A stretch of 51,556 nucleotides of DNA from a virus (Duplodnaviria > Caudoviricetes). Location of the stretch: positions 1 to 51,556 of IMG/VR virus record IMGVR_UViG_3300048778_000586; one strand, 5' to 3'. The position numbers and the translations under genes were made by a program. The notes under the pieces were generated by a model. That model saw only the letters and a program-made list of their open reading frames with translations, had not been told where the DNA came from and ran no database searches. Shown here piece after piece: positions 1-51,432 of the stretch (the first letter of the stretch is position 1; the number at the start of each line of letters is the position of its first letter).

Positions 1-114
1 GAAACTGCCGAAGCTATCGGCGCTCACAAAGCCATCAAGCACCGGAAAGAAGAAACGCCCGGCGCAGATATATCAATACAGGCAACAGGCTCGAAGGAAG
101 TGCCTAACAGGTAA
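1..114 (+). CDS. 3' end of an ORF truncated by the window edge (probable integrase-proximal cassette gene)
   Basis: Open frame from base 1 (ETAEAIGAHK...EVPNR) to TAA 112-114; contains GCCTAAC at 102-108. Confidence 0.5.
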   Translation, partial: ETAEAIGAHKAIKHRKEETPGADISIQATGSKEVPNR

Positions 115-141
115 TTCAACCAACCTAGTTGGCATAATCAC
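102..141 (-). other. putative attI-like recombination site
   Basis: GCCTAAC at 102-108 reads GTTAGGC (GTTRRRY core) on the minus strand, 33 bp upstream of the integrase ATG, the usual attI position. Confidence 0.5.
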
Positions 142-1110
142 ATGACACTTACCCAAAGATTTGAGGATGCGATGATCGAGCAGAGTTGCCTGCCTAATAC
201 CCGCGCCACTTACCATCTTTGGGTAAAACATTTTTATCGTTTTTTTAAAAAGCCAGCTTCGTCATGGATGCCTCAGGATGTTCGCCAATGGATGTTGTAT
301 CTCCATGCTCAAAAGTATTCACCCACATCCCGAAAGCAGGCGCTCTGCGCCGTTAAATTCGTCTTTGACCATGTTCTAAAATTGAATCTTGGCCAGCTTG
401 AGCTGCCGCCAATGCCGCGTGTGCGTCAAACTCTGCGCACTATTCCAACCATCGAGGAAATTGGGCGCATTTTTTCAGGGATGCGTGGGCTTTCAAAAAC
501 AATGGCACAGGTGATGTTCGGTTCGGGATTGCGCGTCAATGAATGTTGCCATTTGCGTGTGCAGGATATTGATTTTGCGGCACTCACGGTCCGTGTTCAT
601 TGCGGTAAGGGATTCAAGTCGAGACTCACTGTATTGCCGGTGTCTCTAGTCCCAGTATTGCAACGGCATTTGGCATTACGAAAGGCATTACATGATTGCG
701 ACCTGGCCGCAGGTTATGGTTTGGTGGAATTACCAGGGCGACTTGCCGTGAAATATAAAAACTCCAGCCGTGAATTTAGATGGCAGTGGCTTTTTCCTTC
801 TACACAAATCCGGGGTCAATATCGCTGGCACGCCACGGATGAATGTGTGGCCAAGGCAATGCGCAAAGCTGTGGCCGCCGCAGGAATAATAAAGCGCATC
901 ACACCTCATACGCTGCGTCATGCCTTTGTTACCTACGGTCTGCGCTGCGGCAATGACATCAAGACGATGATGGACATGGTTGGCCATGAAGACGCGAATA
1001 CAACGATGATTTACGATCATTGTGATGCTGCTCAGGGTGTCAGCCCAATGGATTGTGTTTCTACACCACGATTATTGCCGTCTATTCAAACTCAAAATCT
1101 GATTACATGA
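142..1110 (+). CDS. intI: integron-type tyrosine recombinase (IntI family)
   Basis: N-terminal SAM-like domain (NTRATYHLWVKHF...SPTSRKQAL); catalytic residues in GSGLR, GKG.KSR, HTLRH, GHED and TTMIY; IntI-specific insertion DLAAGYGLVELPGRLAVKYKNSSREFRWQWLFPS. Confidence 0.9.
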   Translation: MTLTQRFEDAMIEQSCLPNTRATYHLWVKHFYRFFKKPASSWMPQDVRQWMLYLHAQKYSPTSRKQALCAVKFVFDHVLKLNLGQLELPPMPRVRQTLRTIPTIEEIGRIFSGMRGLSKTMAQVMFGSGLRVNECCHLRVQDIDFAALTVRVHCGKGFKSRLTVLPVSLVPVLQRHLALRKALHDCDLAAGYGLVELPGRLAVKYKNSSREFRWQWLFPSTQIRGQYRWHATDECVAKAMRKAVAAAGIIKRITPHTLRHAFVTYGLRCGNDIKTMMDMVGHEDANTTMIYDHCDAAQGVSPMDCVSTPRLLPSIQTQNLIT

Positions 1111-1177
1111 ATCTTGATAAGCATGAATTGAAGCTGCTGGCGGCTGTGCCAAAGAACCTGCCGACACCAATCTAAAA

Positions 1178-1750
1178 ATGGTCATAAAACAAACACGCGC
1201 GTTGGGCGACACGGCTTTTGCCGATGGCGATTTGCAGCCGGTCACGGACCGCCGCGGTTCGCTGGCCGCTGATTCGGCTGATACCTCCGCCCTGGTCGGC
1301 GATAGTTCATTCTCGGAACTCGTCGGGCGGATGCGCCGCGAGTTCGATGATCTGTCCGTGCCGCTGTGCGAGGAAGTCCTTGACTGGCTCAAGGGTGAAG
1401 GGTTGCTCGCCATCGGCGCCCATGCACACCATTCGATGCGACCGGCAAAATGGAAGGTGGGTGTCCTCATGGTTTTGGAATACGTTTTCAAACACCCGGC
1501 CATGACGGACATCTTCGCCGCGCTCTATATCTGGGATGAACCGTTGCTGGACGATATCCTCGGACACCTGAACCCCGCCCAGTTCGCCGCCAGGATCGGG
1601 GTGACGCGCGAGGCGGTCAATAAAGCGGTCCTACGCGCGCAATTGTATTTCAAACTGCCGCCGCGAAGGGGTCAGAGGCATCCGCAGGCGCGAGCTAATA
1701 TGAAACAGGCGAGGATGAAACAGTTGAAACGGTTGAAAGTTGAGGGTTGA
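1178..1750 (+). CDS. HTH DNA-binding protein (sigma region-4-like), candidate late regulator
   Basis: C-terminal PAQFAARIGVTREAVNKAV helix-turn-helix and basic tail. Confidence 0.55.
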   Translation: MVIKQTRALGDTAFADGDLQPVTDRRGSLAADSADTSALVGDSSFSELVGRMRREFDDLSVPLCEEVLDWLKGEGLLAIGAHAHHSMRPAKWKVGVLMVLEYVFKHPAMTDIFAALYIWDEPLLDDILGHLNPAQFAARIGVTREAVNKAVLRAQLYFKLPPRRGQRHPQARANMKQARMKQLKRLKVEG

Positions 1751-2613: not shown

Positions 2614-2931
2614 ATGAAATTGAAACGGATACAGCTTAGGCGCACGCGCGGATGGCGGATGCCGGCTAATACGGTGAAGGTGGACCGCACCACGCCGTTC
2701 GGCAATCCGTTCAAGACGGGCGAGAAGTTTTTTGATTATGTCATCGGTTCCGTCCAGGTCGTCAGGAACAACCGCCACGCCGTCGCCCTTTTTCGACAGC
2801 ATCTGATTATGTTTCCCAATCTCCGCGCGCGGATCAAACGCGAGTTGCGCGGGAAAAATCTGGCGTGCTGGTGCGAACCCGGCGCACCATGCCATGCGGA
2901 TGTGCTGATGAAAGTTGCGAATCAAGAATGA
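2614..2931 (+). CDS. DUF4326-family phage protein
   Basis: Signature KRIQLRRTRGWRMP...VDR...FGNPF...ELRGKNLACWC...CHADVL. Confidence 0.8.
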   Translation: MKLKRIQLRRTRGWRMPANTVKVDRTTPFGNPFKTGEKFFDYVIGSVQVVRNNRHAVALFRQHLIMFPNLRARIKRELRGKNLACWCEPGAPCHADVLMKVANQE

Positions 2932-4454: not shown

Positions 4455-6527
4455 ATGACCAGCACTGAAATCAAAGCAAACTCAGGCCACCTCACCCCGA
4501 CCCTCTCCCCCAAGGGTGGAGAGGAGGACAAGTTGCAGAGGCCGTTTTTTGAGGCGTTCATGCCGCGATACCGCGGCACGGTCTGGGAAAATGCCCGGCG
4601 CTTCCGGCTCATTGGTAAAGCCTATGAATCCATGCCGCCCGAACAGAACGGCTATTTCAATATCGCCACCTGCCGCCATCTGACCGGTCCGCTAACTGCC
4701 TGGCAACATCCCGATATCCGAAAAATTCTCGTCCGCAAAGCCATCCAGTCGCAAGGGTCGCTCGTCATTGATCTGGTCATTCCCTACATCATCGAGCATG
4801 ACCCGCGCAATACCTTGCTGCTGTTCGAGACTGACCCCAAGGCGATGGATTATTGCAGCATCCGGCTCATGGACACGCTCAAACAGCATCCGGTCATCGG
4901 CAACATGATCCTGGACGTGCAAAAGGTTGATCGTAATAACGTGACCACGACGTTCATCAAGTTCCCCGCCATGACGCTCTTGGTGGGCGGCTTAAACGAC
5001 AGCAACACGGCGTCGCTGGCGTGGCCGAACGTGCTCATAAGCGAGGCGTGGTTCCACAAGGCCGACGGGTTGCTGTTCAAGGCGTTTGGACGCACGGCGC
5101 AGTTCGAGCATACCTGCAAGATTCTGGTTGAATCCCAGGCGGGAATGGAGGGAGAGGATTTCGCGCGCGAATGCGACCTGGCCGTGCGCGTGCCGCTGAC
5201 CTGGGCGTGCCCGCATTGCGGCGGTCGGCAGGAATGGGAGTTCTCACAAAAAAGGGCGGAAGAGTTCAAATGCAGAATGCAGAATGCAGAATGCAGAATG
5301 CAGAATGAGAAACCAAAACCCGGCACCTATGCGGGCATGATCATACCGCACTCGACCCGGATGGCGGATGGCGCGGAAATCGAGGTCAGCGCGGATGAAC
5401 GGGCACTCGGCGCCGAGTGGGAATGTTATTGGTGCGGAGCGCGGCTTGCCGACACGCCACCATTACGCCGGCAGTTGATGGACAGTTATCAGCAGATCAT
5501 CCCATCACCGGCGCCGCGCGCGGTTGTGTTCGACTGGCCTGAAGAGGCGAGCCTTGGTATATCCTTTGCCGAGAGCGTCCGGCATTTTCTCACCGCCGAT
5601 GCCGCGCAAAAGGCCGGTAACATCATCCCGAAACAGGATTGGTATATGCAACGGCGCGCACGGACATGGAACCCAGCCCTGACAAGGCCGCAGATTGATA
5701 TTGCGCCCGGCAGTTATGATCCGAACCAGATCGTCCCCGATGAGCATTCGCGTAACATGGCCGTGGATTGCCAGCAGGATCAGGTGGTCATGGACAAGAC
5801 AGGCAAATCCGTCACCGGCTGGTTCTGGTACATCGTCCGGGTGGTGGACAAGTTCGGCAATAGCAAACAACTGGCGCGCGGCTATGTAAAATCGTGGGAG
5901 GAATGGATCGCCGTCCAGAAAAAGTGGAAGGTGCCGAATGACCGTGTGGTGATTGATATAGGGCAATGGCCAGGGCAGATTACCCAGCGCGCGGCGGATG
6001 AACGCGAAACCGTGGCCGTCAACAAGATGACGATGCTCGGCTTTATGAAGGACCGAACGGTGACGTGGTATTTGCTGGCCGCGGAACTAATGCGCCGCCA
6101 GTTCAAACATCGGGACGGCCAGATACGGCCGTGGTCGCCGCCGCAACCCATCCCCGCCACAGTGTTCGACAATGACGGGCGCCGGCAGGTGATTCATCTC
6201 AAGAAAATACGGTGGGACAACATGACGTTCAGGCTACAAGTGGACGCCCTGCGCAGCGGCGCACCGGGTATGCCGAAGATGGAAGTGCTGGGCAGGGAAT
6301 TCCTGGACGCGCAGACACAGGCCATGGAGCGCGGCGACCTGACTTATGAGCGGCAGATGGACGCGCAGTATTACATCCCGGAGAAAAGACAGTTCAAAGA
6401 ATTGCGACCGAATGACCATTACATGGCGTGCGAGGCGATGCTGCTGGTGCGGCAGGCCATGGACGGCATGATGGGGCATTTGGCCATTGCAGAAGATAGT
6501 AGTCAGGAGTCAGTAGTCAGGAGTTAA
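4455..6527 (+). CDS. terminase large subunit, lambda gpA-like
   Basis: ATPase region (KILVRKAIQSQGS, VLISEAW, LVESQ), CPHCG and CYWC zinc motifs, nuclease motifs MAVDCQ, VVIDIG and NDHY; lies upstream of the portal. Confidence 0.85.
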   Translation: MTSTEIKANSGHLTPTLSPKGGEEDKLQRPFFEAFMPRYRGTVWENARRFRLIGKAYESMPPEQNGYFNIATCRHLTGPLTAWQHPDIRKILVRKAIQSQGSLVIDLVIPYIIEHDPRNTLLLFETDPKAMDYCSIRLMDTLKQHPVIGNMILDVQKVDRNNVTTTFIKFPAMTLLVGGLNDSNTASLAWPNVLISEAWFHKADGLLFKAFGRTAQFEHTCKILVESQAGMEGEDFARECDLAVRVPLTWACPHCGGRQEWEFSQKRAEEFKCRMQNAECRMQNEKPKPGTYAGMIIPHSTRMADGAEIEVSADERALGAEWECYWCGARLADTPPLRRQLMDSYQQIIPSPAPRAVVFDWPEEASLGISFAESVRHFLTADAAQKAGNIIPKQDWYMQRRARTWNPALTRPQIDIAPGSYDPNQIVPDEHSRNMAVDCQQDQVVMDKTGKSVTGWFWYIVRVVDKFGNSKQLARGYVKSWEEWIAVQKKWKVPNDRVVIDIGQWPGQITQRAADERETVAVNKMTMLGFMKDRTVTWYLLAAELMRRQFKHRDGQIRPWSPPQPIPATVFDNDGRRQVIHLKKIRWDNMTFRLQVDALRSGAPGMPKMEVLGREFLDAQTQAMERGDLTYERQMDAQYYIPEKRQFKELRPNDHYMACEAMLLVRQAMDGMMGHLAIAEDSSQESVVRS

Positions 6528-6555
6528 AACAGGAGTTAAAAAAAATCACAAAATT

Positions 6556-7116
6556 ATGAAAACCCCAAAATTCCAATTCGGTGACATGGTTCGCATCGCC
6601 AAAGACCTTGGTTCGACAATGAGTCATTTTGAGGCAGACCAAGATGCCATCGTCATTGAAAACAACTTTTACGAGGGATATGGAAATAATGAGCGTGAAT
6701 CCAGCTATTCGTTACTGCTTTGCAAGGATGGTAATCAATGCTCATGGTATAACGAACATCAATTAACTTTTTTGCGCCGATCCAGCCTGGAAGAAATCCA
6801 GAAAATAAAATCCGATGCGGAAGCGCGCCATGTCCTCGAATCCGATATCCATTATATTCTTAAGAACTGGAAAAAACTCCGCTTTGGAGTTCCGGGTGCA
6901 ACAATGGGAAGACTCATGGAACTTATCGGCATCACGAATCCTTGGGGAGACCATGGCGAAGCATATCACTATTATGTGAACGCATTGGCAACAGCCAGAT
7001 TGCTTGATGCTGCACTCTTGACCGGCGATATTGTGAAGTTGAATAAAAGACTCAAACAATTAGGAAGACCGGAGGTGGCGGGGGAAGTGGTTGGGGGGGT
7101 GAGGAAAAAGTTTTAA
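6556..7116 (+). CDS. hypothetical protein (moron-like, more AT-rich)
   Basis: 186-aa ORF with KFQFGDMVRI N-terminus, flanked by family G repeats. Confidence 0.65.
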   Translation: MKTPKFQFGDMVRIAKDLGSTMSHFEADQDAIVIENNFYEGYGNNERESSYSLLLCKDGNQCSWYNEHQLTFLRRSSLEEIQKIKSDAEARHVLESDIHYILKNWKKLRFGVPGATMGRLMELIGITNPWGDHGEAYHYYVNALATARLLDAALLTGDIVKLNKRLKQLGRPEVAGEVVGGVRKKF

Positions 7117-7184
7117 TTTTGAATTTTGAATTTTAAGTTATCCATTACAAAAGAAGGGCTGGGTGACTTTATGGTGTTTCTGTA

Positions 7185-7769
7185 ATGCCGGACATACAGC
7201 ATCGTGAGCCAATCGTCATCGCCGCAGGGGATTCTCTGATTTTCAGGCGCCGGCTCCCCGAGTTCCCCGCCGCCGCCGGTTGGTCGCTCACTTACTCGCT
7301 GTTCGCCAGCAACGGCCAAGCCACCGATGTTTCCATTGACAGCACACCCGTCACCGGCACCGTCTATGATTATTTGATGACAGAGAACAATTTCGCCGCC
7401 ACACTGCCCGCCGGCATTTATGTCCTCGTTGGCTATGCCGAAAATAACAACGGCGAAAAACACCAGATTTATCGCGCGAACCTGACCTTGACGGAAAATC
7501 TTTCAGCCGGCAAACCCGTCAAGAATCTGCTCTGGTTCGAGCAGCAAATGGTGAACGATTTGCAGGAGAGCCTGCGCCGCAGTGTCAGGAATGAATTGCA
7601 GGAAACGGATGTGCAGCGCGTCCGTATTTTGCGCAAGCGAACAGTCGAAATCCGAACGGAACTGGCGTTCTGGGAGGAACGGCTGCATCATCGCCAGCAA
7701 ATGGAGCAGATGCGCAATACCGGGCGCAACCCGAATAGCATCGGGATGCTGCTGGGCGGGGGATGGTAA
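7185..7769 (+). CDS. putative head-tail joining protein (gpW position)
   Basis: IAAGDSLIFRRRLPEFPAAAGWSLTY motif; lies between terminase and portal. Confidence 0.55.
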   Translation: MPDIQHREPIVIAAGDSLIFRRRLPEFPAAAGWSLTYSLFASNGQATDVSIDSTPVTGTVYDYLMTENNFAATLPAGIYVLVGYAENNNGEKHQIYRANLTLTENLSAGKPVKNLLWFEQQMVNDLQESLRRSVRNELQETDVQRVRILRKRTVEIRTELAFWEERLHHRQQMEQMRNTGRNPNSIGMLLGGGW

Positions 7770-7773
7770 ATAA

Positions 7774-7880
7774 ATGGTTGAGAGTTGGAAAATGGTTGAG
7801 AGTTGGAAAATGGTTGAGAGTTGGAAAATGGTTGAGAGTTGGAAAATGGTTGAGAGTTGAAAGTTGAAGGTTGAAAGTTA
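7774..7880 (+). repeat. tandem repeat, 5 x 18 bp (ATGGTTGAGAGTTGGAAA), running into family A heptamers
   Basis: Units start at 7774, 7792, 7810, 7828, 7846. Confidence 0.95.
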
Positions 7881-7902
7881 AACACGAAGACACGAATAAT
7901 TT

Positions 7903-8067
7903 ATGAAAATCACTTGCACGACATCAAAAGAAGTCCAGGGCGTGAAAACCGATAAAACCGCCTCGGTCGAGTTGCCCGATAATGCCTTTGAAAAACCCAA
8001 GGACGCAACCGAGGAACAAATTACGGTCACGGATTTCATCAAGTCGGTTTTTGACGGATTGAAATGA
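7903..8067 (+). CDS. small hypothetical protein (54 aa, absent from the ORF track)
   Basis: ATG 7903, MKITCTTSKEVQG...FDGLK, TGA 8065-8067. Confidence 0.5.
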   Translation: MKITCTTSKEVQGVKTDKTASVELPDNAFEKPKDATEEQITVTDFIKSVFDGLK

Positions 8068-8148
8068 TGAAATGGTTTAGGGATGAAGGTAGGCGCAACC
8101 TTAAGGTTGCGGTTACGGGTTGAGAGTTGAATATGGATAAAATTTGAA

Positions 8149-10818
8149 ATGAAGCTTTTACTGCATAACGGCGCTCGAGCGGTTGCGCGGCCTGATACTG
8201 GACGGCTCGGCGAGTCGTCCCTACCTATTGAATGGCAGGGCGCATTGCGGCCGGATGTGACACAGGGCGAGATCGAACGCGCTAATAATCAGATTCAGCG
8301 TTTCGCGCGGCTCCATGAGCAGATGCGCACGTTATTCGATTCCAATGACCGGATGCAGCGCAGTTACGACAGCTCGACCACCACCCAGTTCAATGCGGAC
8401 ATGAGGGGTACGTTCGGCAGCGCCAATGCCGAAATAATGACGAGCGATTATTCGACGCGCGCGCGCTCCCGCACCATCGCCAAGGACACACCCCAGGGCA
8501 AAGCCGTCATCCGCACGTTCCAAAACAATGTCGTGGGCGATGACCCGTTCAAGCTCGACATGCGGTTCGGCACTTGGACGAAGAAAAAAAATGCCGTGAG
8601 CGGCCAGTCCGAACGCCAGTTCGTCGAGGACGAAGAGGTCAATGCCGCCATCGAGGCTGAATGGGAAATTGCCGGCCAGCCGGAAAATTTCACGGTTAAA
8701 ATGAACATGAGCCGGATGGAGGCGGAACGCATCATGGAGGCCAGTGCTGTGCGCGATGGATTCATTTTAATGCGCCATCAGCGCGGCTTCCCACGCAATC
8801 CCTTCAGGTACGCCGTGGAACTACTCGAGTGCGACCGTCTTCAGAGCGCTTTCATGGGAAAATCCGATACCGGAAATCCCATCCGGTTCAGCATCGAGTA
8901 TGACAAACAATGGAATTATCCGGTGGCTTACTGGATTTTGACGCGGCACCCGGGCGACATCTTCGGACAGTCCACCATGGCCGGCTCGGTCGCCGGCGGC
9001 AATGGCTATGGCGGATCAGACAGCCAGGGACAATTGTTCCGAGAGCGCATTGACGCCGGGGACATCGTGATGTTCAATAATCTCCGCGACCGGGCGGAAC
9101 AAGATATCGGATTTACCGAACTCGACGCCAGTGTGCAATCGCTCTGGCGGCTGTTCCAATACGAAAAGGCGCTCACCTACGCGGCCATTGCGAGTTGCAT
9201 GAAGCCGTTCTGGATCAAAAAGAATTTCCCGACCGGGATGCAGTTTACCACGGAGGAGATTGAAACCTTCCTCAAGAACGCCAATGTGGGCACCGAAGGC
9301 GGCGCGGGCGCGGCGGCGGACGGCGCGCCGGGCAACAGCGGGGCGACCTCGCGCCAGCAACGCATCGCCCAGCGCGTCAGCGCGGATGTGCCGGGATCCA
9401 CCCTCGACCTACCTTGGGGTCTGGAATTGATGCAGACCGACCCGAAGTTCCCCATCGAAGCGGCCCACGAATTTCGGCAGGATAATCAGCGCGACATCGC
9501 CGTGGCCACCGGCACGTCGTATCAGGACGTTTCCGGCGATTTCCAGAACCTCGGCTTTGCCGCGGCGCTCATGTGCCAGACGCCCAAGCAGGATTATTGC
9601 AAAATACGGCAGCGGAATTTCATTGATTGCGCCGTGCGCCCCGTGTTCAGAGAATGGCTGCGCGCAACGATTTTATCCGGCCGGTTCGATGAAAAATATC
9701 CCGATATCGTCGTCTCCATCACGAAGATCGAGGATTATGTGCAGGCGGCCAAGTTCAAAGGCAAACGCTGGGCTTTCGTCAATCCGCTCGTGCAGGCGCA
9801 GACGCTCATCATTATGATGGAGGCCGAAATCCTCTCGCCGCAACAGGTGCAGGATCAGTTGCCCGATGGCGTCAGCATCGAGACTCTTTACACGCTCATC
9901 GCCGAGGCCAAGGCCGAACACACAAAACACGGATTGGATGTCGAGGATGCTTCAAACATGGACGTGACACGACCCACCATCAGCAAGGGCGAACCAGGCG
10001 AAATCAGGCCCGCCCCGAAGGAATTAGGCGCTGGCGGTGCTGCGCAACCCATTCCCGCACGCCGACCGGCCAATCCTGTCAGAAGCCAATTGGGCCGCAA
10101 CCTGGACACCTCGGATTCCGTGCTCTATCTCGTCCGGCACGGTGAGACTCAGTTGAATGCGGACGGCATGACTCGCGGCTGGGCCAACCCGCCTCTGAAT
10201 GATGCCGGCCGGAAAGAGGCGGCCGATGCCGCCGACGAACTGGCGAACCGCGGCATCACCCTTATCGTCACATCCGACCTGACGCGCGCGGTTGAAACCG
10301 CCACCATTATCGGCGAGAAAATAAACGCGCAGGTCGTCGTTGATCCCGGATTGCGGCCGTGGGGATTCGGGCCGGAGATTGAAGGCAAAAATTCCGTTGA
10401 GGTCGCCCCGCAGATCGAGCATTACGCACGCAACCCCGATGAACGCCCCGCCGGCAGTTATCCCGATGGGCAATTGCCCGAGACATTCAATCAATACCGT
10501 AAGCGGATTTTCACGGCCATTGAGAAAATCCAGAACACATATCCGTCCGGTGCCACTGCCATCGTCACCCATTACCGCACGTTCAAGGCGCTGGAATCAC
10601 GCACGGAAGGCCATGATGTGGACGTGGACACGTTCATCGCGCGCGCACCGGACAATCCCGGGTCGGTCTATGTGCTCGAAAATGGGGAGCTGTCGGAGAA
10701 GCTACCTGAGAAATCCAGCCCCGAAAGCGTTCGGGGTTCAAGCCGGAAAAGAAAACCGCGTGGCATCTCGAAACAGACGATGGCGCTGATACAAGGGCAA
10801 GGGGATGGGAAATCGTAG
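8149..10818 (+). CDS. lambda-family portal protein fused to a C-terminal histidine phosphatase domain
   Basis: Portal motifs (RARSRTIAKD, VELLECDRL, PVAYWI, YQDVSGDFQNLGFAA, RWAFVNP) followed by LYLVRHGET...PLN..GR...TSDLTRAVET...IVTH. Confidence 0.9.
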   Translation: MKLLLHNGARAVARPDTGRLGESSLPIEWQGALRPDVTQGEIERANNQIQRFARLHEQMRTLFDSNDRMQRSYDSSTTTQFNADMRGTFGSANAEIMTSDYSTRARSRTIAKDTPQGKAVIRTFQNNVVGDDPFKLDMRFGTWTKKKNAVSGQSERQFVEDEEVNAAIEAEWEIAGQPENFTVKMNMSRMEAERIMEASAVRDGFILMRHQRGFPRNPFRYAVELLECDRLQSAFMGKSDTGNPIRFSIEYDKQWNYPVAYWILTRHPGDIFGQSTMAGSVAGGNGYGGSDSQGQLFRERIDAGDIVMFNNLRDRAEQDIGFTELDASVQSLWRLFQYEKALTYAAIASCMKPFWIKKNFPTGMQFTTEEIETFLKNANVGTEGGAGAAADGAPGNSGATSRQQRIAQRVSADVPGSTLDLPWGLELMQTDPKFPIEAAHEFRQDNQRDIAVATGTSYQDVSGDFQNLGFAAALMCQTPKQDYCKIRQRNFIDCAVRPVFREWLRATILSGRFDEKYPDIVVSITKIEDYVQAAKFKGKRWAFVNPLVQAQTLIIMMEAEILSPQQVQDQLPDGVSIETLYTLIAEAKAEHTKHGLDVEDASNMDVTRPTISKGEPGEIRPAPKELGAGGAAQPIPARRPANPVRSQLGRNLDTSDSVLYLVRHGETQLNADGMTRGWANPPLNDAGRKEAADAADELANRGITLIVTSDLTRAVETATIIGEKINAQVVVDPGLRPWGFGPEIEGKNSVEVAPQIEHYARNPDERPAGSYPDGQLPETFNQYRKRIFTAIEKIQNTYPSGATAIVTHYRTFKALESRTEGHDVDVDTFIARAPDNPGSVYVLENGELSEKLPEKSSPESVRGSSRKRKPRGISKQTMALIQGQGDGKS

Positions 10819-10878
10819 TTTTTAGTTTTTAATTTTTAATTTTAAGTTTAACCACAAAGACACGAAGAACACGAAGTT

Positions 10879-11379
10879 ATGAAAGATCACATTGCCAAAA
10901 CCATTGCCGACCTGAAATCCGAACGTGCCAAGCTGGACGAAATCATCGCCACGCTTGAACGGTATGGCGCCGCCACAAGTGATGCGCCGGAAGTAGCCGT
11001 TCCCGCCGAACGGCTCGGCGAGCCGTTCTTATCTAAAACAAGAAAATACACCCGCCGCGCGGTAAGGCCGATTTCTACAACAGCCACACGCAACCTGAAG
11101 GTTGCGGCTACAAAAGTTACGGGTATGGATTTGGACAAGCCGACCACGGTTGGCGGGGCAATGAAGTTGATCTGCAAGGCGTACGTCAAAAAATCCTTTA
11201 CGATGCAGGATGTGATCGCGGCACTCGAAGCGGACAAGGATTACAATAAATTCTATCAGGAATCAAGCGGTGTCTCGACGGTCTATGCGAATCTGGCTTA
11301 TTGGAGCAAGACCGGAAAATTGGAAAAGATCGGCGAAGGCGCGGATGCGACCTATAAGGTTTTGGATTTGGATTTTTAA
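10879..11379 (+). CDS. hypothetical protein (coiled-coil plus winged-helix-like C-terminus)
   Basis: IADLKSERAKLDEIIATLE N-terminus; in-frame family B insert. Confidence 0.6.
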   Translation: MKDHIAKTIADLKSERAKLDEIIATLERYGAATSDAPEVAVPAERLGEPFLSKTRKYTRRAVRPISTTATRNLKVAATKVTGMDLDKPTTVGGAMKLICKAYVKKSFTMQDVIAALEADKDYNKFYQESSGVSTVYANLAYWSKTGKLEKIGEGADATYKVLDLDF

Positions 11380-11417
11380 GAATTTACCGCAATATCGCGG
11401 TGAAAAAAAAAGGAAAT

Positions 11418-11588
11418 ATGGTAAAAAATACAACACAAAAAACCACGGTCACGAAAACCCCCGCCGCAACGACCGGCACCGAACACATCGTTGCGCCCGC
11501 CAAGTCGGTGGTCGGTGAACAAACGATAACTCACCCGGTCAGCAAGCCGATCCCGGGCGCTACGAAAACCGTAGCCGAGACGAAGTAA
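11418..11588 (+). CDS. small Thr/Lys-rich hypothetical protein
   Basis: ATG 11418 after a purine-rich leader. Confidence 0.4.
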   Translation: MVKNTTQKTTVTKTPAATTGTEHIVAPAKSVVGEQTITHPVSKPIPGATKTVAETK

Positions 11589-11846
11589 TCTCTCACGGAC
11601 TCACAGCCACACAGCAAGTTGCTGTGTGGCCTAACACGGATGAATTTGGCGGGGGCGTGCATGTCAGGCGCGGAATACTTTTTCCAGCCCCAAGTGTGCG
11701 CCCTACGCCGCTTCTGAAGGAGTTGAAGGTTGAAAGTTGAGGGTTGAGAGAAGGAAAATGCCACCTCACCCCTTCCCTCTCCCCCCAAGGCGGAGAGGGA
11801 GAAGATGGTAAAGTTGAAGGGCTGGGTGACTTCATGGCGTTTTCGT

Positions 11847-14360
11847 ATGCCAGTGAAACATTCCCGCGCCGCTTCCCACGCCGTCCATCTCTATCGTTAC
11901 GCCAAGGTGGATCCCACCAGCGGCGATGAAAAGGAACGCACGTTCCAAGTCGCTTTCTCTTCCGAACATCCCGTCCCGCGCAAGGCCAATGACTTGGATG
12001 TCGAACTCGGCGCCTGTTCACGGAAGGGTGAGAAATACCTGGAAGTCTTGAGCCATGCCGCCGGTGATTATGATATCTCGCCCATGAACAATTCCGGCGC
12101 CCTGCTCGACGAGCACCAGGAACAATTCCATTTGGGCAACATCAAACACGCCGAAGTCTCCACCGACTTGTTGGGTCGCGCCATGATCTGGTATGACGGT
12201 ATCACCGACCTTTCCAAAACCCGCGCCGAACAGATGCGCTCCGGGTCGCGGCCGCATGTCTCTTTTGGCTATTTCCATACCCGCTTTTTGGGCGACATGA
12301 AGTTGCCCGATGGCCGCTCCGCAAAACGGTTCGCGTGGCTCGGAGATGAAATTTCCAGCGTGTCCAGTCCCGCCGATCCCAAAGCCGGCAAACACCGCAG
12401 CGCCGGCGATCTGCCGCATTGCCTTCATTGCGGCCAGGAATTTGATGATGACGATCTGGACAAGGACGGCCGCTGCGCCGATTGCGGGCCGGTCGCGCGC
12501 GCGCTCAAAGACCGCATTATCCGCGCCGCTGACAAGGACGTTTCCGCCAATGACCTCGGAACCAAAGTGGCCACTGCCGCGGAGCAGGATGATCGCTTCA
12601 CCGGCAGGGACGACAAAGGCACACGCACCGGCTGGGTGCAAGTCCAGGACTTGACCCATGACGGCACGAACTGGTCGGCCACTCTTAATTGCTCCAAGGA
12701 CGGTAAAAAATACGAGGTGCCCGTCGCCGTTGCCGATGATGGCGCGGTCAAACTCGGCGCCGAAAAACGCAGCGAAGTTGACTTGAATAAATTTGTATCC
12801 GAACCCGGACCAGAAAAGAAAAACAATTTACGAACCAAGCCTATGGAACTCGACGAAAAATCAATTCGTGCCAACGAACGCGCTACCGCCGTGGCTGAAC
12901 TCACTCCCGAGATTCAAAAAACCACGCGCGCCACTGTCGTTGCGGAATTCCAAACTCAAAGCGCCGCCCAGAAAACCAAGCGCACCACCCTTCGTAACGA
13001 GCTTCATCCGCTGGCGGATGCCTTTATCAAGGACCACGGCACCAAATGGGTTGGCGACACCGGCAATGTCCAGGTCTTGGGTGAGCGCATCCGCGCTCTC
13101 GAGCAGGAAGCCTATGACGCGCCGGAAGATCATACCCTCCCGGAAATCCGCACCGATTTCAAAGTCAAGGTTCAAGACCTCATCTCCCGGTCCCGTGCTC
13201 CCAAAAAACAGGAGGAAGCCGCCATGCTGCCGGATAAATTGGCCAGCCGTTGCTCGCTGGGTAATGTTTTCAGAGCGGCCAGTGAAGCCTCTCAAAAAGG
13301 AAATCGCAGCTCTTGTTTCATACCCACAAGTGGTGCTGAAAAAGAGGCGAATGATGAACTTCGTCGCGCTGCCGCCGACTTCCCGGGCGGTTTGAACATT
13401 TTCGGCGAAGGCGGACTGCATTTGCCCATGAACATGCCGTCCGGCCTGTTCCGCAAGGACGGCCGCAGCGGACGCATGACCCGCGATGCCCTGGCCACTG
13501 ATTTCCCGACCGCCGGCGCCTTGATTACACCCCAGTTTATCTGGCCCATGATTGATTTGCTCCGCAACATGCCCGCGCTTTCCCGTCTTGGCATGGTCTG
13601 GTTGAGTGGTGTGGTTGGCAATCTCGTTCTACCCCGACAGGAAGCTGCCACCATCGCACAATGGCTTCCTGAAGGTGCACAATTGACAGCTTACGACCAG
13701 GTGCTCGGCCAGATCAAGATGTCACCGCACCGCGTCGGCAGCCGCCAGAATTATTCACGGCTTGCACTCATTCAAACCACCCCCGATTTCGAGGCCATGG
13801 TCATACGCGACCACATGGCCGTCATCGCCCTCGCCATTGATGAAGCGGGAATCAACGGCCAAGGCGCCGCCGACCAGCCGCTGGGCATCCTGAACCAGCC
13901 CGGCATCGGTTCGGTTGCCTTTGGCGGCGCGGCTGCCACTGCTTATGCCCGAATGGTGGCCATGGAAACCGCCATCCGTAAATCCAACATTTACGATCCG
14001 GTTTCGTTCCTCTCCACCAGTGTCGTGCGCGGCACGTTGCGCGTCACGCCCGCCACTCTCACCGGTTCAACCGTTGTCAGCGGCTCAACCAACTCCGTCT
14101 GGACGACCGAGAACGGCGAGGAAAATGTCATCGGCCGGCCCGCCGTGGACAGCCAACAAGTGCCCGGCGATATTATGATCGCCATTGCCGCCAATCATCT
14201 CATTGGTGCACAATGGGGCGGACTGGCCGTGGTGCTCGATACTTTGTCACGCGCGGATTTCGACGAATATAAACTGTCCATCAACACTTATGTGGACTTT
14301 GCACTGCGCCACCCGCAGGCCGTCTGCCGCAGCGCGGATTCTCTGGCTGTACTCACTTAA
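11847..14360 (+). CDS. prohead protease / scaffold / HK97-fold major capsid polyprotein
   Basis: Protease motifs VAFSSEHPV, LLDEH, VSFGY, EISSVSSPAD; capsid motifs GALIT.Q...IDLLRN, GNLVLPRQ, QPLGILN, VDFALRHP. ATG 11847 follows the TGACT motif. Confidence 0.9.
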   Translation: MPVKHSRAASHAVHLYRYAKVDPTSGDEKERTFQVAFSSEHPVPRKANDLDVELGACSRKGEKYLEVLSHAAGDYDISPMNNSGALLDEHQEQFHLGNIKHAEVSTDLLGRAMIWYDGITDLSKTRAEQMRSGSRPHVSFGYFHTRFLGDMKLPDGRSAKRFAWLGDEISSVSSPADPKAGKHRSAGDLPHCLHCGQEFDDDDLDKDGRCADCGPVARALKDRIIRAADKDVSANDLGTKVATAAEQDDRFTGRDDKGTRTGWVQVQDLTHDGTNWSATLNCSKDGKKYEVPVAVADDGAVKLGAEKRSEVDLNKFVSEPGPEKKNNLRTKPMELDEKSIRANERATAVAELTPEIQKTTRATVVAEFQTQSAAQKTKRTTLRNELHPLADAFIKDHGTKWVGDTGNVQVLGERIRALEQEAYDAPEDHTLPEIRTDFKVKVQDLISRSRAPKKQEEAAMLPDKLASRCSLGNVFRAASEASQKGNRSSCFIPTSGAEKEANDELRRAAADFPGGLNIFGEGGLHLPMNMPSGLFRKDGRSGRMTRDALATDFPTAGALITPQFIWPMIDLLRNMPALSRLGMVWLSGVVGNLVLPRQEAATIAQWLPEGAQLTAYDQVLGQIKMSPHRVGSRQNYSRLALIQTTPDFEAMVIRDHMAVIALAIDEAGINGQGAADQPLGILNQPGIGSVAFGGAAATAYARMVAMETAIRKSNIYDPVSFLSTSVVRGTLRVTPATLTGSTVVSGSTNSVWTTENGEENVIGRPAVDSQQVPGDIMIAIAANHLIGAQWGGLAVVLDTLSRADFDEYKLSINTYVDFALRHPQAVCRSADSLAVLT

Positions 14361-14428
14361 ACAATTTGACGAATACGCAACCTCAAGGTTGCGGTTACAT
14401 AAATACGAATTTTAACGAACAAAAAACT

Positions 14429-15052
14429 ATGAAATTCAACAAATGGTTTGTCGGACTCGCAACCTCCGCCGCAGTCATGTTGGCCTGCTCCGCGCGCGCC
14501 GTAATCGGTTTTGATGCGTTCGCCAATACGCGCACCGCCGTTCTGGTTGCCCCCACCAACTTCGCCGCCGGCACCGCTTTCTCGAACGCCCCCATTGACC
14601 ATATCGGTTTGATTGGCCGCGGTGTTGTGACCATCTTTTCCGGCAAAGGCGCGGCCAATCCCACCGGCACGCTCACCGCACAAGTGGTGACATCGCCCGA
14701 TATGACGAATTGGTTCGTTCTCACCAATTTCGCCCTCATCACCACCCCCACCGCCTTTCCTATTACCAACGGCTTTTATGGCGGAACAAATCTGGCCACG
14801 ACCAACAATATCCTTCTGCCCGGCACCGTCACCACACCCGTTGGCAGCACTGCGGGTTGGGTCACTCCTTATCTGGCTCCCTTGGCATTCACCAATGGTG
14901 GTCCCGTTACCATCACCACGCCCGGAGTTTATCAATTGGCGTTCAACTTGGACGACCAGTATCGCTATATTGGCATCCAGTTCGTCCCGTCTGCCACCAG
15001 CGGCACGAACTTTGTCGGGAGCGCCACTTTGACCGCGCCGAACATTTATTGA
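14429..15052 (+). CDS. putative capsid decoration protein with a Sec signal peptide
   Basis: Directly after the capsid gene; MKFNKWFVGLATSAAVMLACSARA signal; beta-rich and T/N-rich; paralogous to 15596..16564. Confidence 0.6.
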   Translation: MKFNKWFVGLATSAAVMLACSARAVIGFDAFANTRTAVLVAPTNFAAGTAFSNAPIDHIGLIGRGVVTIFSGKGAANPTGTLTAQVVTSPDMTNWFVLTNFALITTPTAFPITNGFYGGTNLATTNNILLPGTVTTPVGSTAGWVTPYLAPLAFTNGGPVTITTPGVYQLAFNLDDQYRYIGIQFVPSATSGTNFVGSATLTAPNIY

Positions 15053-15091
15053 CCCATTTCAAACCAAACACCACAACCGTTTACAAAAACT

Positions 15092-15508
15092 ATGAAACTC
15101 GTCGCTTGCAAAAATTTCGCCAATGTTCCCTCATTGGGCTTGAAAGTGAATCCCGAAGACGTTGGCTTCGTGCACCCACTCCATGTCCATAAGGGCTATC
15201 GCTTTGATATCGGCACCGGCAAGATTTACGGCGATTCCAAGACCCAAACCGATCTGACCCAGCCCGAACGCACCCTCATCGCCCAACTAATCGTCTCGAA
15301 GAGCGCCGTCATTGATGACGGCTCTTCCGAGAGCAAGGCCGTCATCGCCCGGATTGATGCCGAAGTGGCTGTGGAACGCAAAGCTGATGCCGCCGCCGCC
15401 AAGGTCCTCAGCCAGCCTGAAATGATTGCGGCCGCCGTCGCCAGTGCCCTGACTCCCTATTTCAAGGGCGGTAAATTGAAGCCCGCGGCGGATGCTGAAA
15501 TCAGTTGA
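15092..15508 (+). CDS. hypothetical head-module protein
   Basis: 138-aa ORF with an A/C-rich leader, followed by a terminator. Confidence 0.65.
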   Translation: MKLVACKNFANVPSLGLKVNPEDVGFVHPLHVHKGYRFDIGTGKIYGDSKTQTDLTQPERTLIAQLIVSKSAVIDDGSSESKAVIARIDAEVAVERKADAAAAKVLSQPEMIAAAVASALTPYFKGGKLKPAADAEIS

Positions 15509-15530
15509 TCGCAGATTTGATTTTCTCAAC

Positions 15531-15563
15531 CCAGCTCCTGTTCGCAGGGGCTGGTTTTTTTTT
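15531..15563 (+). terminator. intrinsic terminator of the capsid operon
   Basis: CCAGCTCCTG-TTCG-CAGGGGCTGG stem-loop followed by T9. Confidence 0.85.
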
Positions 15564-15595
15564 GACTCAGGAAACTTAATGAGAACCTTGACCTT

Positions 15596-16564
15596 ATGAA
15601 ACGAACCATTCCAGCACTCGCCCTGTTGATCGGGATTTTTTTCCTGACACTTCCCGCCACCGCCCAATTCGGTTTGGATCAGTTTGCCGTGCCGCGTCCC
15701 ATTGTCCTGGCATCGCCGCAATCTCTGACGACCGCATTGACCACCAACGGGCCGATTGATACCCATGGTTATATCGGCGTGGGCACCGTGTTATTGACCA
15801 GCTCCACCAATCCTTATCCCGCCGCCGTCACCAACCTGTCCGGCCTGTTGCCTCTGACGACCATCGGCATCACCAATCTACCCGCCACAGGCAATACCCT
15901 CACCATCACTCTGGATGCCACCAACCAGGTCTTTATCTGGACGAATAATACTACGGTAGGCCCCGTAATGGTCCGCATCGGCGCCAGCACCGCCGTTTCC
16001 GCCACGAACCTTAACACCGTCCTTACCACCGGTGGTTATACCGTCGCCCAAGCCAGCCCGACCGTTCTTTTACTCACCGGCTCGACCAATGACACGTTGC
16101 TGACCGCCATCAATTCGCTCGGCTGGGGCACCAACCAGAATACCACGATTTATTCCGTCACCAATGTTGTGACCGCAGGCGCCGGCACACTCACAGCGAC
16201 TCTTGAAGTTTCAAGCAATACCACGGATTGGACCGCCCTCAATAATTACGCCGAGGGTGTTCCGACAATTCTTGTGCGCACTAATCTTTCATCCGGCTCC
16301 GCAGTCCTGGCGACCAACCTATCCCTTGTGCCCGGCGTTCTGACGGTGCCCAATGCCGCCCTCTACGGTTATGCCACGCCGGTTCTGGCGCCGGCGTTGT
16401 TCAATAATTCCGGCGCAATCACCATGGGCGGCTTGAATGTCACGGAAATTGCCTATCAAGTGTCGCCAACACTCGGTTATCTGCACGTCATCTGGACGGC
16501 CACCGGTCCCCTCACCACCAATGCCGCCGTTTCTGCCACGTTCAACGGAGTCAAAAGCCAGTAA
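15596..16564 (+). CDS. putative decoration protein paralogue with a Sec signal peptide
   Basis: MKRTIPALALLIGIFFLTLPATAQ signal; shares GxDxFA..R, PIDxxGxIGxG and GTLTA...T[DN]W with 14429..15052. Confidence 0.6.
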   Translation: MKRTIPALALLIGIFFLTLPATAQFGLDQFAVPRPIVLASPQSLTTALTTNGPIDTHGYIGVGTVLLTSSTNPYPAAVTNLSGLLPLTTIGITNLPATGNTLTITLDATNQVFIWTNNTTVGPVMVRIGASTAVSATNLNTVLTTGGYTVAQASPTVLLLTGSTNDTLLTAINSLGWGTNQNTTIYSVTNVVTAGAGTLTATLEVSSNTTDWTALNNYAEGVPTILVRTNLSSGSAVLATNLSLVPGVLTVPNAALYGYATPVLAPALFNNSGAITMGGLNVTEIAYQVSPTLGYLHVIWTATGPLTTNAAVSATFNGVKSQ

Positions 16565-19997: not shown

Positions 19998-20153
19998 AAT
20001 TTTGCCTGTGTTATTTTCACTTCCCGGTTTCGCCGGGGCGATTGTCACTCTCTTGTGACTATGGACACGATACCCGATGGACTTGATTTTGTCAATCCTA
20101 ACACAGTATATTTATTTAACAAAAAGCATCAGCAAAATTGAACCATGGCACGC
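19995..20153 (-). promoter_or_regulatory. early promoter-leader module, copy 1
   Basis: AT-rich upstream element, TTGACA (20090-20095), 17 bp, TATCGT (20067-20072), CCCGG-CGAAA-CCGGG hairpin, then ATG. Confidence 0.8.
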
Positions 20154-20188
20154 TCTATGCTTTGGGCAATGGACACCCCATTTCTTAT

Positions 20189-20803: not shown

Positions 20804-21066
20804 AATTTTGCCTGTGTTATTTTCACTTCCCGGTTTCGCCGGGGCGATGTCAACGTCTCATTGACTATGGACACGATACCCGATGGATGGATTTTGTCAA
20901 TCCTAACACAGTATATTTATTTAACAAAAAGCATCAGCAAAATTGAACCATGGCACGCGCAATGCTTCAATCCTAACCCATCCACGCCCTTTGTCAATCC
21001 TAACACAGTATATTTATTTAACAAAAAGCATCAGCAAAATTGAACCATGGCACGCGCAATGCTTCA
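20801..21066 (-). promoter_or_regulatory. early promoter-leader module, copy 2, plus a third upstream promoter copy
   Basis: TTGACA (20895-20900), 16 bp, TATCGT (20873-20878) with the same leader; the upstream block repeats again at about 20992-21066 (TTGACA-16-TAGGAT). Confidence 0.8.
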
Positions 21067-21366
21067 ATAAGGATTCTTTTTGCCAAAATCGTCCCGAAGG
21101 TAGTTACCGAACACCTACAATCAGGCGTGAATGCAGTGCGAAAAGCGTGTTACACAATTTTTAGGGTGATGAAAAACCAATAAAATCAACGGTTTAATGA
21201 TTGCTTTTCACTAAATTTGGATACGAACAGAAAAATAAGTGTGGTTTTGTTCAATGTTTACAATGGGTTTGTGATGGTTCGGTGAAATTAAAAGCGTGAA
21301 ACATGGTGATGATTTTGAGCAAAATTCGATTTGAAAAAAAGCAGTGCGATTTATTGAAAAAGGTTG

Positions 21367-24363: not shown

Positions 24364-24425
24364 CCACGAAGGCGCAACCTAAAGGTTTCGGTTACAAGGA
24401 AGATTTGACTGAAGGATGTTTCTGA

Positions 24426-26796: not shown

Positions 26797-26963
26797 TGGT
26801 TGAGGGTTAGGGTTTGACCCGTGCTTCGCTGACAGCTTCGCAGGGCAGGAAGTTGAAGGCTGTCCGCAGATTGGTGCAGATTTTTTAACCACGAAGATAC
26901 AAAGCGGCGCGATAGGGACATCGCGCCCTACCTTTTTTGTAGATTTGACTTACAACGGTTTTT

Positions 26964-29776: not shown

Positions 29777-29937
29777 TTATGACCCCAATTTTTCATCCGC
29801 AGATTACGCAGATTAACGCAGATTTTTGATAAGGAAAACAGGAAGATATGAAAAAAAATGAATAGTGCGGCGCGCAGCGGAGTGCGCGCCCTACCGCGGA
29901 CGCATGAGCCATGCGTCCCTACCTATAAAATTTGATT

Positions 29938-31367: not shown

Positions 31368-31480
31368 ATGGTTGAGGGTTGAAGGTTGAGAGTTGAGAAA
31401 TGGTTGAGGGTTGAAGGTTGAAGGTTGATAGAATAAAAAATAAAGTCTCAACCTAAAGGTTGAGGTTACAAGGAAAAAAT

Positions 31481-50112: not shown

Positions 50113-50523
50113 ATGAAGGATAGAATTGTTATTTTGGGAATTATTGGGGTGCTTTGCGCCTTGACGGTTAATTCCTCGGCGATGGACCGGTGGGAGGCAT
50201 TGTCTCAAATCGAGTCCGGCGATTGCGATACTTGCATTGGCCCGTCGGGTGAAGTATCTCGATATCAGATTTTGCCCTGCGTCTGGCGGGAATATACGAA
50301 ACTGCCGTTGAGCGCGGCTACCAACCCATTCACCGCTCGGAATGTCGCGGAGACAATCATGGCGGCGCGCATTCGTTATTTTTATCAAATCGGCGCGCAA
50401 GGGACCTCGCGCCCTACCGATCAGGAATTGTATCTGCTCTGGCACCGGCCGGCGCGGGTGCTGCGTCCTAAACCCGCCGAACGCGAACGCGCGGAACGAT
50501 TTGAGAATTTGTGCAGGAAATGA
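50113..50523 (+). CDS. secreted lysozyme-like / transglycosylase protein
   Basis: Signal peptide; ALSQIESG...G..GEVSRYQI catalytic Glu-Ser motif. Confidence 0.7.
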   Translation: MKDRIVILGIIGVLCALTVNSSAMDRWEALSQIESGDCDTCIGPSGEVSRYQILPCVWREYTKLPLSAATNPFTARNVAETIMAARIRYFYQIGAQGTSRPTDQELYLLWHRPARVLRPKPAERERAERFENLCRK

Positions 50524-50974: not shown

Positions 50975-51190
50975 ATGAACAAGGCGAATGACATTCTGGA
51001 AATGGTCAAGATGGGAGTCTGTGGCGCACAAGCCAGCCTCGTCGTCGCGGAAGAATTGTCGGCGCCGGAACGCCGGCTGTCCCTGCAACATACCATTGAT
51101 CAGTTGATGCCGTTGCGCGGATTGCTATTAACGGCAGCGGGAGAAATCAATCTAGAACTTTACGTAGAGCCAAGCAACAGCCGCGAATGA
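50975..51190 (+). CDS. hypothetical protein
   Basis: ATGA overlap with the next gene. Confidence 0.5.
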   Translation: MNKANDILEMVKMGVCGAQASLVVAEELSAPERRLSLQHTIDQLMPLRGLLLTAAGEINLELYVEPSNSRE

Positions 51191-51432
51191 AAACAACGCT
51201 TGACCAATCTGCCGCGTTCAACGAAGTCAGCGACTCCCGAAAACTGGAAGCGCAAGGGCTGTTGGCTGCGACGGCTTGTTATGCCACAGGCCAGCACGTC
51301 GCTAACCTCACAATGCCGTATGTGTTCTGGCGATTTCAATACTGGCTCAAGGTGAAGGACATGACATACACCCAAATTGATGAAGCCGTGAATCGAGGAA
51401 AACTCGTCCCATGTGACTGCATGGTGGCATAA
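51187..51432 (+). CDS. hypothetical protein in an integron-like cassette
   Basis: Contains GTTATGCCAC (51278-51287); its exact complement GTGGCATAAC (51424-51433) overlaps the stop codon. Confidence 0.6.
   Translation: MKTTLDQSAAFNEVSDSRKLEAQGLLAATACYATGQHVANLTMPYVFWRFQYWLKVKDMTYTQIDEAVNRGKLVPCDCMVA

Follow-up and report, generated by a model that had tools for sequence, protein, structure and literature searches.

The window analysed here is an entire IMG/VR virus record (IMGVR_UViG_3300048778_000586), a single linear contig of 51,556 bases with a CheckV completeness estimate of 91%, and its plus strand holds nearly all of the long open reading frames (ORFs). At its left end lies an integron-type integrase gene (intI, or int below), preceded by a short attI-like site and by the end of a putative gene cassette. 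The features of this locus are as follows.

1 to 107, plus strand: 3′ part of the cassette next to int, truncated at the contig start and ending ...GCCTAA (contigs; no similarity to related loci)
102 to 108, plus strand: R box GCCTAAC, which is GTTAGGC on the minus strand (breakpoints in relatives, metagenome contigs, boundary-box rule)
102 to 141, plus strand: attI-like site GCCTAAC AG GTAATTC AACC AAC CTA GTT GGCATAA TCAC (alignment A2, 11 loci)
142 to 1110, plus strand: intI, integron-type tyrosine recombinase of 322 amino acids (Pfam, NCBIfam, alignment to 2a3v, family residues)

The product of ORF 142..1110 matches PF00589 (91.5 bits) and PF13495. Among NCBIfam models it fits TIGR02249, “integron integrase,” best by a wide margin, with 244.8 bits in a single stretch over positions 3-313 of 315, against approximately 110 bits for XerC and 107 bits for XerD. 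The closest solved structure is VchIntIA (IntI4; PDB 2a3v) with 167.8 bits, and identity to IntI1 is 37%. Both the TIGR02249 and the 2a3v alignments are continuous through the IntI-specific additional domain, the latter without a break across the insertion at query residues ~183-221, ...LPGRLAVKYKNSSREFRWQWLFPS. Across 22 family members R131, K156, H256, R259, H282, and Y291 never vary, and these residues make up the complete R-K-H-R-H-Y catalytic set. The Trp aligned to W219 of VchIntIA, a residue that holds an unpaired base, is likewise invariant in the phage family (W214); unlike in VchIntIA, the position aligned to W157 is a His in the window integrase and varies in the family. The predicted product is thus an IntI-type tyrosine recombinase. 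An earlier note on this DNA, made from the letters alone, had described the IntI-specific insertion and the full catalytic set, both of which the alignments and the six invariant residues confirm, and had called the enzyme the sole recombinase of the window. This agrees with our searches, in which ORF 142..1110 gave the only PF00589 match in the record, and PF00665 (rve) and PF00239 (resolvase) gave zero matches in the whole record.

Searching a protein collection with the integrase returned 2364 matches; the best 120 of the 2364 are all at least 60% identical, and several of these 120 reside on contigs of 39-51 kb. A single-sequence scan of a viral contig collection found no relative, whereas a scan with alignment A1 did. 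From three collections we assembled 104 related loci (L001 and so on below). When the window ORFs were compared with all of these loci, just four genes were found in common; with almost nothing shared apart from int, the gene must travel among different backbones, and synteny was therefore unable to extend the contig. The first 1200 bases of the window are present nearly unchanged in 20 public runs from 14 studies of peat and freshwater metagenomes.

Thirty-three bases (109-141) lie between the GCCTAAC box at 102-108 and the ATG at 142, and all three plus-strand frames from the left end stop within or just past the box (105-107, 112-114, and 143-145). The positions agree with the earlier note, which had placed a minus-strand GTTAGGC 33 bp before the ATG, overlapping the end of a plus-strand gene. 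The bare heptamer is at chance level, with five GTTAGGC in the window against 3.65 expected and at least five in 35 of 100 shuffles, and the significance of the box comes from the comparison with relatives and metagenome contigs, not from the motif count. The block conserved immediately 5′ of int is about 40 bp long and has GCCTAAC (102-108) as its left edge. Alignment A2 has AACAG (106-110), AAC (122-124), and GTT (128-130) invariant, and CCAAC-CTA-GTTGG (120-132) forms a palindrome; readings of a palindrome at 120-137 as a LexA box or a dif-like site were set aside. The expression AACAG.{9,13}AAC.{3}GTT matched 52 times in 861,714 bases; 51 of these matches (50 loci and the window) are directly 5′ of int and on the int strand, the sole match away from int being in L082. 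No second copy of the site was found in any locus, neither half recurs above chance, and no host junction was found at the site. As in an attI, positions 102-141 adjoin the 5′ end of intI and have the putative crossover in an AAC/GTT triplet. The site also stands intact before two shortened int genes, L003 2560-3114 (residues 2-157) and L103 506-799 (approximately the first 90 residues). In L033 (~9960-9996) its left box reads ...CATAGCAG instead of ...NAACAG, which may mark a secondary-site junction.

Pairs of loci with near-identical int regions reveal what this left edge does. Similarity begins exactly at the first A of AACAG, with breakpoints at relative positions 0 to -12. L028 and L029 are 99.83% identical over 3619 bp from relative position 0, and their left flanks are unrelated; L015 and L057 are 99.85% identical over 2000 bp from position -12; L006 and L072 (96.8%) begin at 0, as do L006 and L046. 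Past the variable segment the backbone homology resumes, the segment being 734 vs 782 bp long in L015 and L057 and 2389 vs 2102 bp in L006 and L072. A bounded segment has therefore been replaced between near-identical backbones, which is the behavior of a cassette.

The same edge is seen in metagenomes. Contigs of four runs from four studies were aligned to window positions 1-1500 (751-800 in X3 and 151-200 in X4 were uncovered and are not used as evidence). In all four runs contigs break at 102-108, those on the int side starting at 104 or 106, and two alternative left partners are joined to the same attI-int segment, one at 102 and one at 106. The window itself shows no similarity to any related locus to the left of ~97-102. 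In these contigs its int-proximal cassette extends past base 1 by 117-265 letters, and after 107/108 this cassette continues in X4 as GAAAAGCTGAGCC..., an attC-type 5′ arm, and in X16 as yet another sequence. The breakpoints argue that the GCCTAAC box is a real recombination junction, and we infer that the crossover point is AA|C, between 107 and 108.

The partner sites in the arrays could be recognized from the replaced segments. In L015 and L057 the shared sequence ends ...GGCCAAC at the far edge of the segment, and both of the unrelated inserts carry GTTGGCC about 100 nt further on, at the base of an imperfect hairpin. Twenty seed attC sites were aligned with MAFFT; RNAalifold predicted 12 pairs for them, nine with compensatory changes; one base is bulged, and the 3′ arm has an invariant additional T. 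When 787,327 bases were searched at E ≤0.1 with a covariance model (R1) built from the seed sites, 106 attC hits emerged, and 103 of these were in int sense. Among loci with an attI-like site, 91 hits lie upstream of that site and one lies downstream. In the 88 distinct rows of alignment A4, 94.1% of cells are paired vs 69.4% in shuffles, and the covariation score is 0.571 vs 0.121, a value equalled by none of 500 shuffles and dropping to 0.068 or less when the partners are slid. The L-box helix is 98.1% paired in these rows, and all eight of its pairs have changed on both sides. The hairpins of the relatives have R and L boxes, unpaired bases opposite the 5′-AAC-3′ arm, and a variable loop, as attC sites do. 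Two simpler detectors were replaced by the covariance model: a strict-stem, bulge-free heuristic (21 hits vs 1 in shuffles), which missed known sites, and an anchored-arm score, which was better but gave many weak hits. More distant IntI relatives (31-42% identical) in L082, L013, and L077 also have attC hits; those in L082 (5320-5377 and 5728-5785, minus strand) lie downstream of int and may reflect a Treponema-type arrangement.

The boundary boxes of the cassettes show a further pattern. In an integron array the last four variable bases of a 3′ box should complement the box at the far end of the same cassette, and not the one that opens the same attC. The 3′ box is an exact complement of the next boundary box at 68 of 78 sites, matches at three of the four positions at seven, and at fewer at three; it exactly complements the 5′ box of its own site in only 4/78. 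In L072 even the “invariant” triplet covaries, as a GAT.../...ATC pair. The tabulation retains the rows of both L001 and L030 despite partly common arrays, and five near-duplicate loci were dropped from it; the window row was compared across the contig break with the attI box and scores three of four, its true on-contig neighbor being exact. Arrays comprise one to six cassettes of 215-1503 bp upstream of int. At least one attC is present in 27 of the 34 non-duplicate loci having at least 400 nt upstream, at least two in 18 of the 34, and at least one in eight of nine distinct IMG/VR contigs.

According to the accessible portion of PMC5027507, attC recombination takes place in the 5′-AAC-3′ of the bottom strand, the unpaired bases are on the arm opposite the AAC triplet, one conserved base is T, and a 6-bp stem separates the first and last unpaired bases. 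The phage sites show these bottom-strand features on the int-sense strand. As a control on polarity we used a class 1 integron (L105), oriented with intI1 on the plus strand and with its cassette genes annotated on the minus strand. R1 finds its attC sites on the plus, intI1-sense strand (29.3, 28.4, and 18.6 bits), and they obey the boundary-box rule; since the polarity is the same, the geometry of intI, attI, and attC in the phage loci is regular.

The orientation of the cassette genes is another matter. The longest ORF is on the int-sense strand, reading towards int, in 58 of 69 cassettes; its median coverage of the cassette is 92%, compared with 50% on the other strand. Most cassette ORFs begin within the attC of their cassette, 8-65 nt into it, and the stop usually lies 6-40 nt beyond the next boundary, often with ATGA overlaps, and at most loci the ORF upstream of the attI-like site ends within the site in one fixed frame. 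In a canonical integron, cassette ORFs are on the top strand and run away from intI, from the promoter Pc; here 58/69 are on the bottom (int-sense) strand. The predicted ORFs are, by this measure, flipped relative to attC, while the relation among intI, attI, and attC is itself regular. Cassette ORFs of two of the distant relatives, L013 (8024-9018) and L077 (8831-9751), are also on the int strand (284 vs 94 and 234 vs 69 amino acids).

The right end of the window carries the following features of an array.

51216 to 51284, plus strand: weak attC-like site, with 5′ box GTTCAAC (51216-51222), L arm TCAGCGA, and 3′ box GTTATGC (51278-51284) (model R1)
51222 to 51432, plus strand: complete cassette of 211 nt ending GCATAA (GCATAAC at 51427-51433 is the exact reverse complement of GTTATGC)
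51433 to 51556, plus strand: first part of another cassette, truncated at the contig end, with an attC 5′ arm (AACGGCATAGTTGAGCAG...) and an ORF start at 51469 (sequence)

With filters off, R1 scored 51216-51284 at 19.7 bits (E 0.0034) in a search of the whole window, the runner-up having 11.9 bits (E 0.42). The stop codon TAA (51430-51432) of ORF 51187..51432 falls inside the box GCATAAC. In the last segment a 13-bp inverted repeat (~51456-51468 and ~51538-51550) is present, the fold has -20.3 kcal/mol (z -2.64), and the contig ends 87 bases past the ORF start at 51469. Since the array runs off the contig at both ends, all that the window displays of it is one weak attC, one complete cassette, and two cut ones. 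AAGCAAC at 51172-51178, at one point taken as the 5′ box, was replaced by 51216-51222 on the basis of the R1 alignment, and heuristic hits at 5394-5529 and 50044-50173, which have neither R1 support nor a partner box, were treated as chance. The circularization proposed as a check in the earlier note found no support: the 51,556-base contig has no terminal repeats of at least 10 bases, and therefore no simple circular closure, and a direct join of the last and first bases, although it leaves one frame open, lacks a GTTAGGC at the right end.

The setting of the locus in the window is that of a phage genome, as the following features indicate.

4455 to 14360, plus strand: packaging and head module downstream of int (PHROGs matches phrog_15, phrog_21, and phrog_617)
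4455 to 6527, plus strand: terminase large subunit (PHROGs)
8149 to 10818, plus strand: portal (PHROGs)
11805 to 14360, plus strand: major head protein (PHROGs)
48724 to 51215, plus strand: small genes upstream of the array, an early-type region oriented towards the cassettes (ORF list)

The virus is presumed to be a tailed phage because of its terminase, portal, and head protein, that is, of the head and packaging module only; Pfam and PHROGs are silent on most window proteins, putative tail genes included, and no tail protein could be named. Minus-strand ORFs at 47738-49190 precede the small plus-strand genes, and a relative of ORF 50113..50523 is located upstream of the array in L001 and L030. 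No tRNA genes, which were sought as integration targets, were found in the window or near int in 13 loci.

The related loci show the same arrangement. Among 115 ORFs upstream of the arrays at 16 loci, eight match phrog_310 (transposase), eight match phrog_296 (DNA transposition protein), and four are Mu Gam-like; many of the others are anti-repressors, and DnaB and ParB also occur. The phrog_310 assignment was confirmed singly in seven of ten large upstream ORFs (L001, L004, L009, L010, L015, L034, and L043), and Pfam at 1e-5 gave no family for any of the ten. The 57 ORFs downstream include head protease, major head, neck, tape-measure, DNA polymerase, and primase families. With phage gene families on both sides, the integron is therefore a part of phage genomes, placed between their early and their late genes. 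Many of the phages have their own transposase for integration. In L001, a 57-kb contig also with a Mu-type transposase, int and two small genes are followed by host-like genes (12220-15847), including a membrane glycosyltransferase-like ORF and a 670-amino-acid minus-strand protein; the host-like stretch may be a prophage edge.

Fifty-nine cassette ORFs were compared with Pfam. The matches were to Dam (3), C5 DNA methylase (2), N6_N4 methylase (2), DUF4326 (1), and crAss001_48 (1), so that orphan DNA methyltransferases account for seven of the 59. Most of the cassette ORFs have no Pfam match, and there are no resistance genes among those scanned. The DUF4326 gene lies in the cassette adjoining int in L008 (9619-9981); in the window (2614-2931) it is downstream of int, among backbone genes.

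We consider it highly likely that gene 142-1110 is the integrase of an integron resident in a phage genome, and that this integron is working or was so recently. The earlier note had proposed a phage-borne integron with inverted cassettes, a view that the AA|C junctions, the covarying attC sites, the boundary boxes, the 58/69 ORFs in int sense, and the phage flanks all support. Several points weigh on the other side. The TIGR02249 score of 244.8 bits stays below the curated cut-off of 265. The evidence from the four runs consists of contigs rather than reads and therefore speaks to presence, not frequency. Alignment A4 was fitted to R1, which favors the pairing counts, although the MAFFT seed alignment gives the same pairing pattern. 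R1 gave no hit in seven of the 34 loci with at least 400 nt upstream, and in 11 of the 69 cassettes it is the other strand that carries the longest ORF. In the window itself the only significant attC is the weakest of the 106 R1 hits and folds no better than shuffles (z +1.55), and its 5′ boundary is within ORF 51187..51432, which makes any reading of that cassette's gene tentative. A partner box GTTAGGC for the cassette ending at 102-108 is not near the right end, so that at least part of an attC must be missing between the contig ends, whose join is inferred rather than seen.

Some of these points could mean that the integron of the window is a decaying remnant, in which the integrase may be intact, the right-end cassettes are fossils, and the single attC has arisen by chance. 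The low score and poor fold of 51216-51284, its boundary inside an ORF, and the lack of a further attC in 51.5 kb would fit such decay. Against this, the 3′ box of the site has an exact seven-base partner 143 nt downstream, in which the stop of the ORF lies and after which comes a consensus attC 5′ arm; no catalytic residue has been lost; and at the int-side junction the four metagenomes show variation, with three or more left partners, which indicates ongoing exchange in the phage population. We regard decay as quite unlikely.

It is more unlikely still that the integron is a passenger, a piece of a host chromosomal integron caught through imprecise excision of a prophage and having no role in the phage. 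Such captures do occur: Qi et al. 2023 (PMC9892861) describe them for phages of Vibrio anguillarum, and PMC4889954 reports integrons in Verrucomicrobia. In the present loci, however, the same module is found in the same place and orientation in many phage backbones, and this fixed position, combined with int genes only 52-80% identical among the module-bearing backbones, points to long residence. The ORFs run in the direction of the phage operon, which is not how bacterial integrons are built, and the cargo is phage-typical (orphan methyltransferases in 7/59, DUF4326, and a relative of crAss001_48). Only nine of 50,697 deposited phage records match the integrase, every one at less than 38% identity; these matches (identity ≤37%) are to the same records as in PMC9892861.

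Least probable of the three is that the enzyme is a mere lysogeny integrase acting on 102-141 as attP, with left flanks that are host DNA from different integration sites or that differ as attP and attL forms do. In favor of this reading, it is the only recombinase among the three families searched in the record, the divergent genes at ~47.7-49.2 kb resemble a lysogeny switch, L001 has host-like genes after the two small genes downstream of int, and in an attP/attL comparison similarity would likewise end abruptly next to int. Yet what joins int on the left is not host genes but short ORF units with attC hairpins chained by the boundary-box rule; the backbone homology returns past the variable segment, and the genes to either side belong to phages; a Mu-type transposase in seven relatives gives these another way to integrate; and no tRNA gene lies near int in the 13 loci. 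The IntI of the window, the only recombinase found in the record, may nevertheless have a second, integrative function, such as the integration at host att sites that the earlier note suggested.

For the resident integron, the layout would be an array of small cassettes, the attI-like site (102-141), and intI (142-1110), all on one strand between early or accessory genes and packaging genes. Each cassette would start with an attC hairpin and end in NNNNAA, and the crossover AA|C on the int-sense strand would correspond to that of the recombinogenic bottom strand of a canonical attC. IntI would then catalyze attC × attI and attC × attC exchange between co-resident phage genomes; the natural variation seen at the junctions is indirect evidence of attI × attC recombination. 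Transcription from a phage promoter further upstream would presumably read through the cassettes and so express them, and the ribosomes translating one ORF could open the hairpin that follows it. The cargo, including the orphan DNA methyltransferases, may serve the phage, for instance against restriction.

We lean, with reserve, towards a wider view: that these integrons are native to phages and not captured, and belong to phages of peat and freshwater that form a widespread lineage with many Mu-like members, whose hosts are probably Verrucomicrobiota. By means of IntI these phages would swap accessory genes of their own, methyltransferases among them, between phage genomes that co-infect or reside in a cell. 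The flipped cassettes would be carried on an early transcript that reads into intI, which would make the non-template strand the recombinogenic one, and their start codons would be locked in attC hairpins that the upstream ribosome opens. Such an arrangement would couple expression, translation, and recombination.

The phage loci resemble class 1 integrons in the IntI-type recombinase (37% identical), the site at the intI 5′ end, the AA|C cassette bounds, the 3′ box complementing the next boundary box, and the polarity of attC with respect to intI. They differ in having cassette ORFs on the opposite strand, towards intI (58/69), with start codons inside attC; in an attI-like layout of R box, 11 nt, and AAC-N3-GTT; in their residence in phages; and in the absence of resistance genes among the scanned ORFs. 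In chromosomal integrons, too, the cassette ORFs are on the other strand relative to the phage arrays, and VchIntIA of Vibrio cholerae belongs to a sedentary chromosomal array rather than to a phage.

Phage Mu itself may offer a further likeness in its layout. In the semi-essential early region of Mu-like transposable phages, a run of small accessory genes likewise comes after transposase/Gam and before the late genes, in the early orientation, whereas the region in these phages is organized as integron cassettes with an integrase.

A group of inverted integron integrases (Treponema and others) has intI on the attC strand, according to the accessible text of PMC4889954 and PMC13323075. As in the phages, intI and cassette genes then have the same direction; the phage loci differ in that intI and attC keep their regular relation and the ORFs are flipped relative to attC. 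The only report of phage integrons found, in a literature coverage without subscription journals, is PMC9892861. Its accessible part gives three complete integrons and one In0 among 10,705 phage genomes, described as captured host or class 1 pieces. They share with the present loci IntI, attC, and cassettes on phage DNA, as well as DNA methyltransferase genes among the cassettes, but their integrases are at most 37% identical, and here we have a whole lineage with a fixed position in the phage and inverted ORFs. Supplements and subscription journals being outside its coverage, our literature search found neither a phage-native integron lineage nor cassette ORFs flipped relative to attC.

Integrons have been regarded as bacterial devices, reported in phages only as rare captured fragments (PMC9892861, in the part accessible). 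A lineage of integrons built into phages, if confirmed, would give phages a newly recognized means of becoming mosaic and exchanging accessory genes. The gene orientation is opposite to that of every textbook integron, and nature would in that event have supplied an experiment on the interplay of strand choice, transcription, and hairpin folding when attC sites recombine. Among the cassettes there could be a store of phage genes selected for rapid exchange, possibly for counter-defence. The finding also bears on surveys that treat integron and phage recombinases as separate classes, such as the peat study PMC13323075, in which 97.4% of the contigs bearing integron-type recombinases did not receive a complete-integron call.

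Other features of the window deserve brief mention. A protein of 766 amino acids (36688-38988), encoded amid presumed tail genes, has a pro-kumamolisin activation domain and a subtilase/sedolisin domain. Plus-strand arrays of the heptamer GTTGARR occur at gene ends in about 20 intergenic places (e.g., 1730-1760, 7773-7880, 31365-31435, 35365-35650, and 50807-50840). The period of seven gives TGA in every frame, and several ORFs at these arrays end ...VEG*. With up to two mismatches, GTTGAGGGTTGAA matches 71 times in the window against 1.3 expected, and a heptamer palindrome similar to GTTGARR is found in the host-like flank of L001 (13730-13825). Four further families of dispersed repeats are present in the window, namely a hairpin, GCGCAACCTnAAGGTTGCGGCTACA, in 13 copies; CGGCGCGATAGGGACATCGCGCCCTACC in nine; CACCTCACCCC..CCCTCTCCCC..GGAGAGGGAG in ten; and ATCCGCAGATTACGCAGATTAACGCAGATTTT in eight (example positions 1869-1901, 24369-24401, 26905-26943, 34460-34506, and 29794-29844). 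Lastly, a 79-nt AT-rich repeat is present three times, in copies 92-100% alike (20088-20166, 20893-20971, and 20990-21068), at a change in the sign of the GC skew; these repeats may be an origin or a promoter set.

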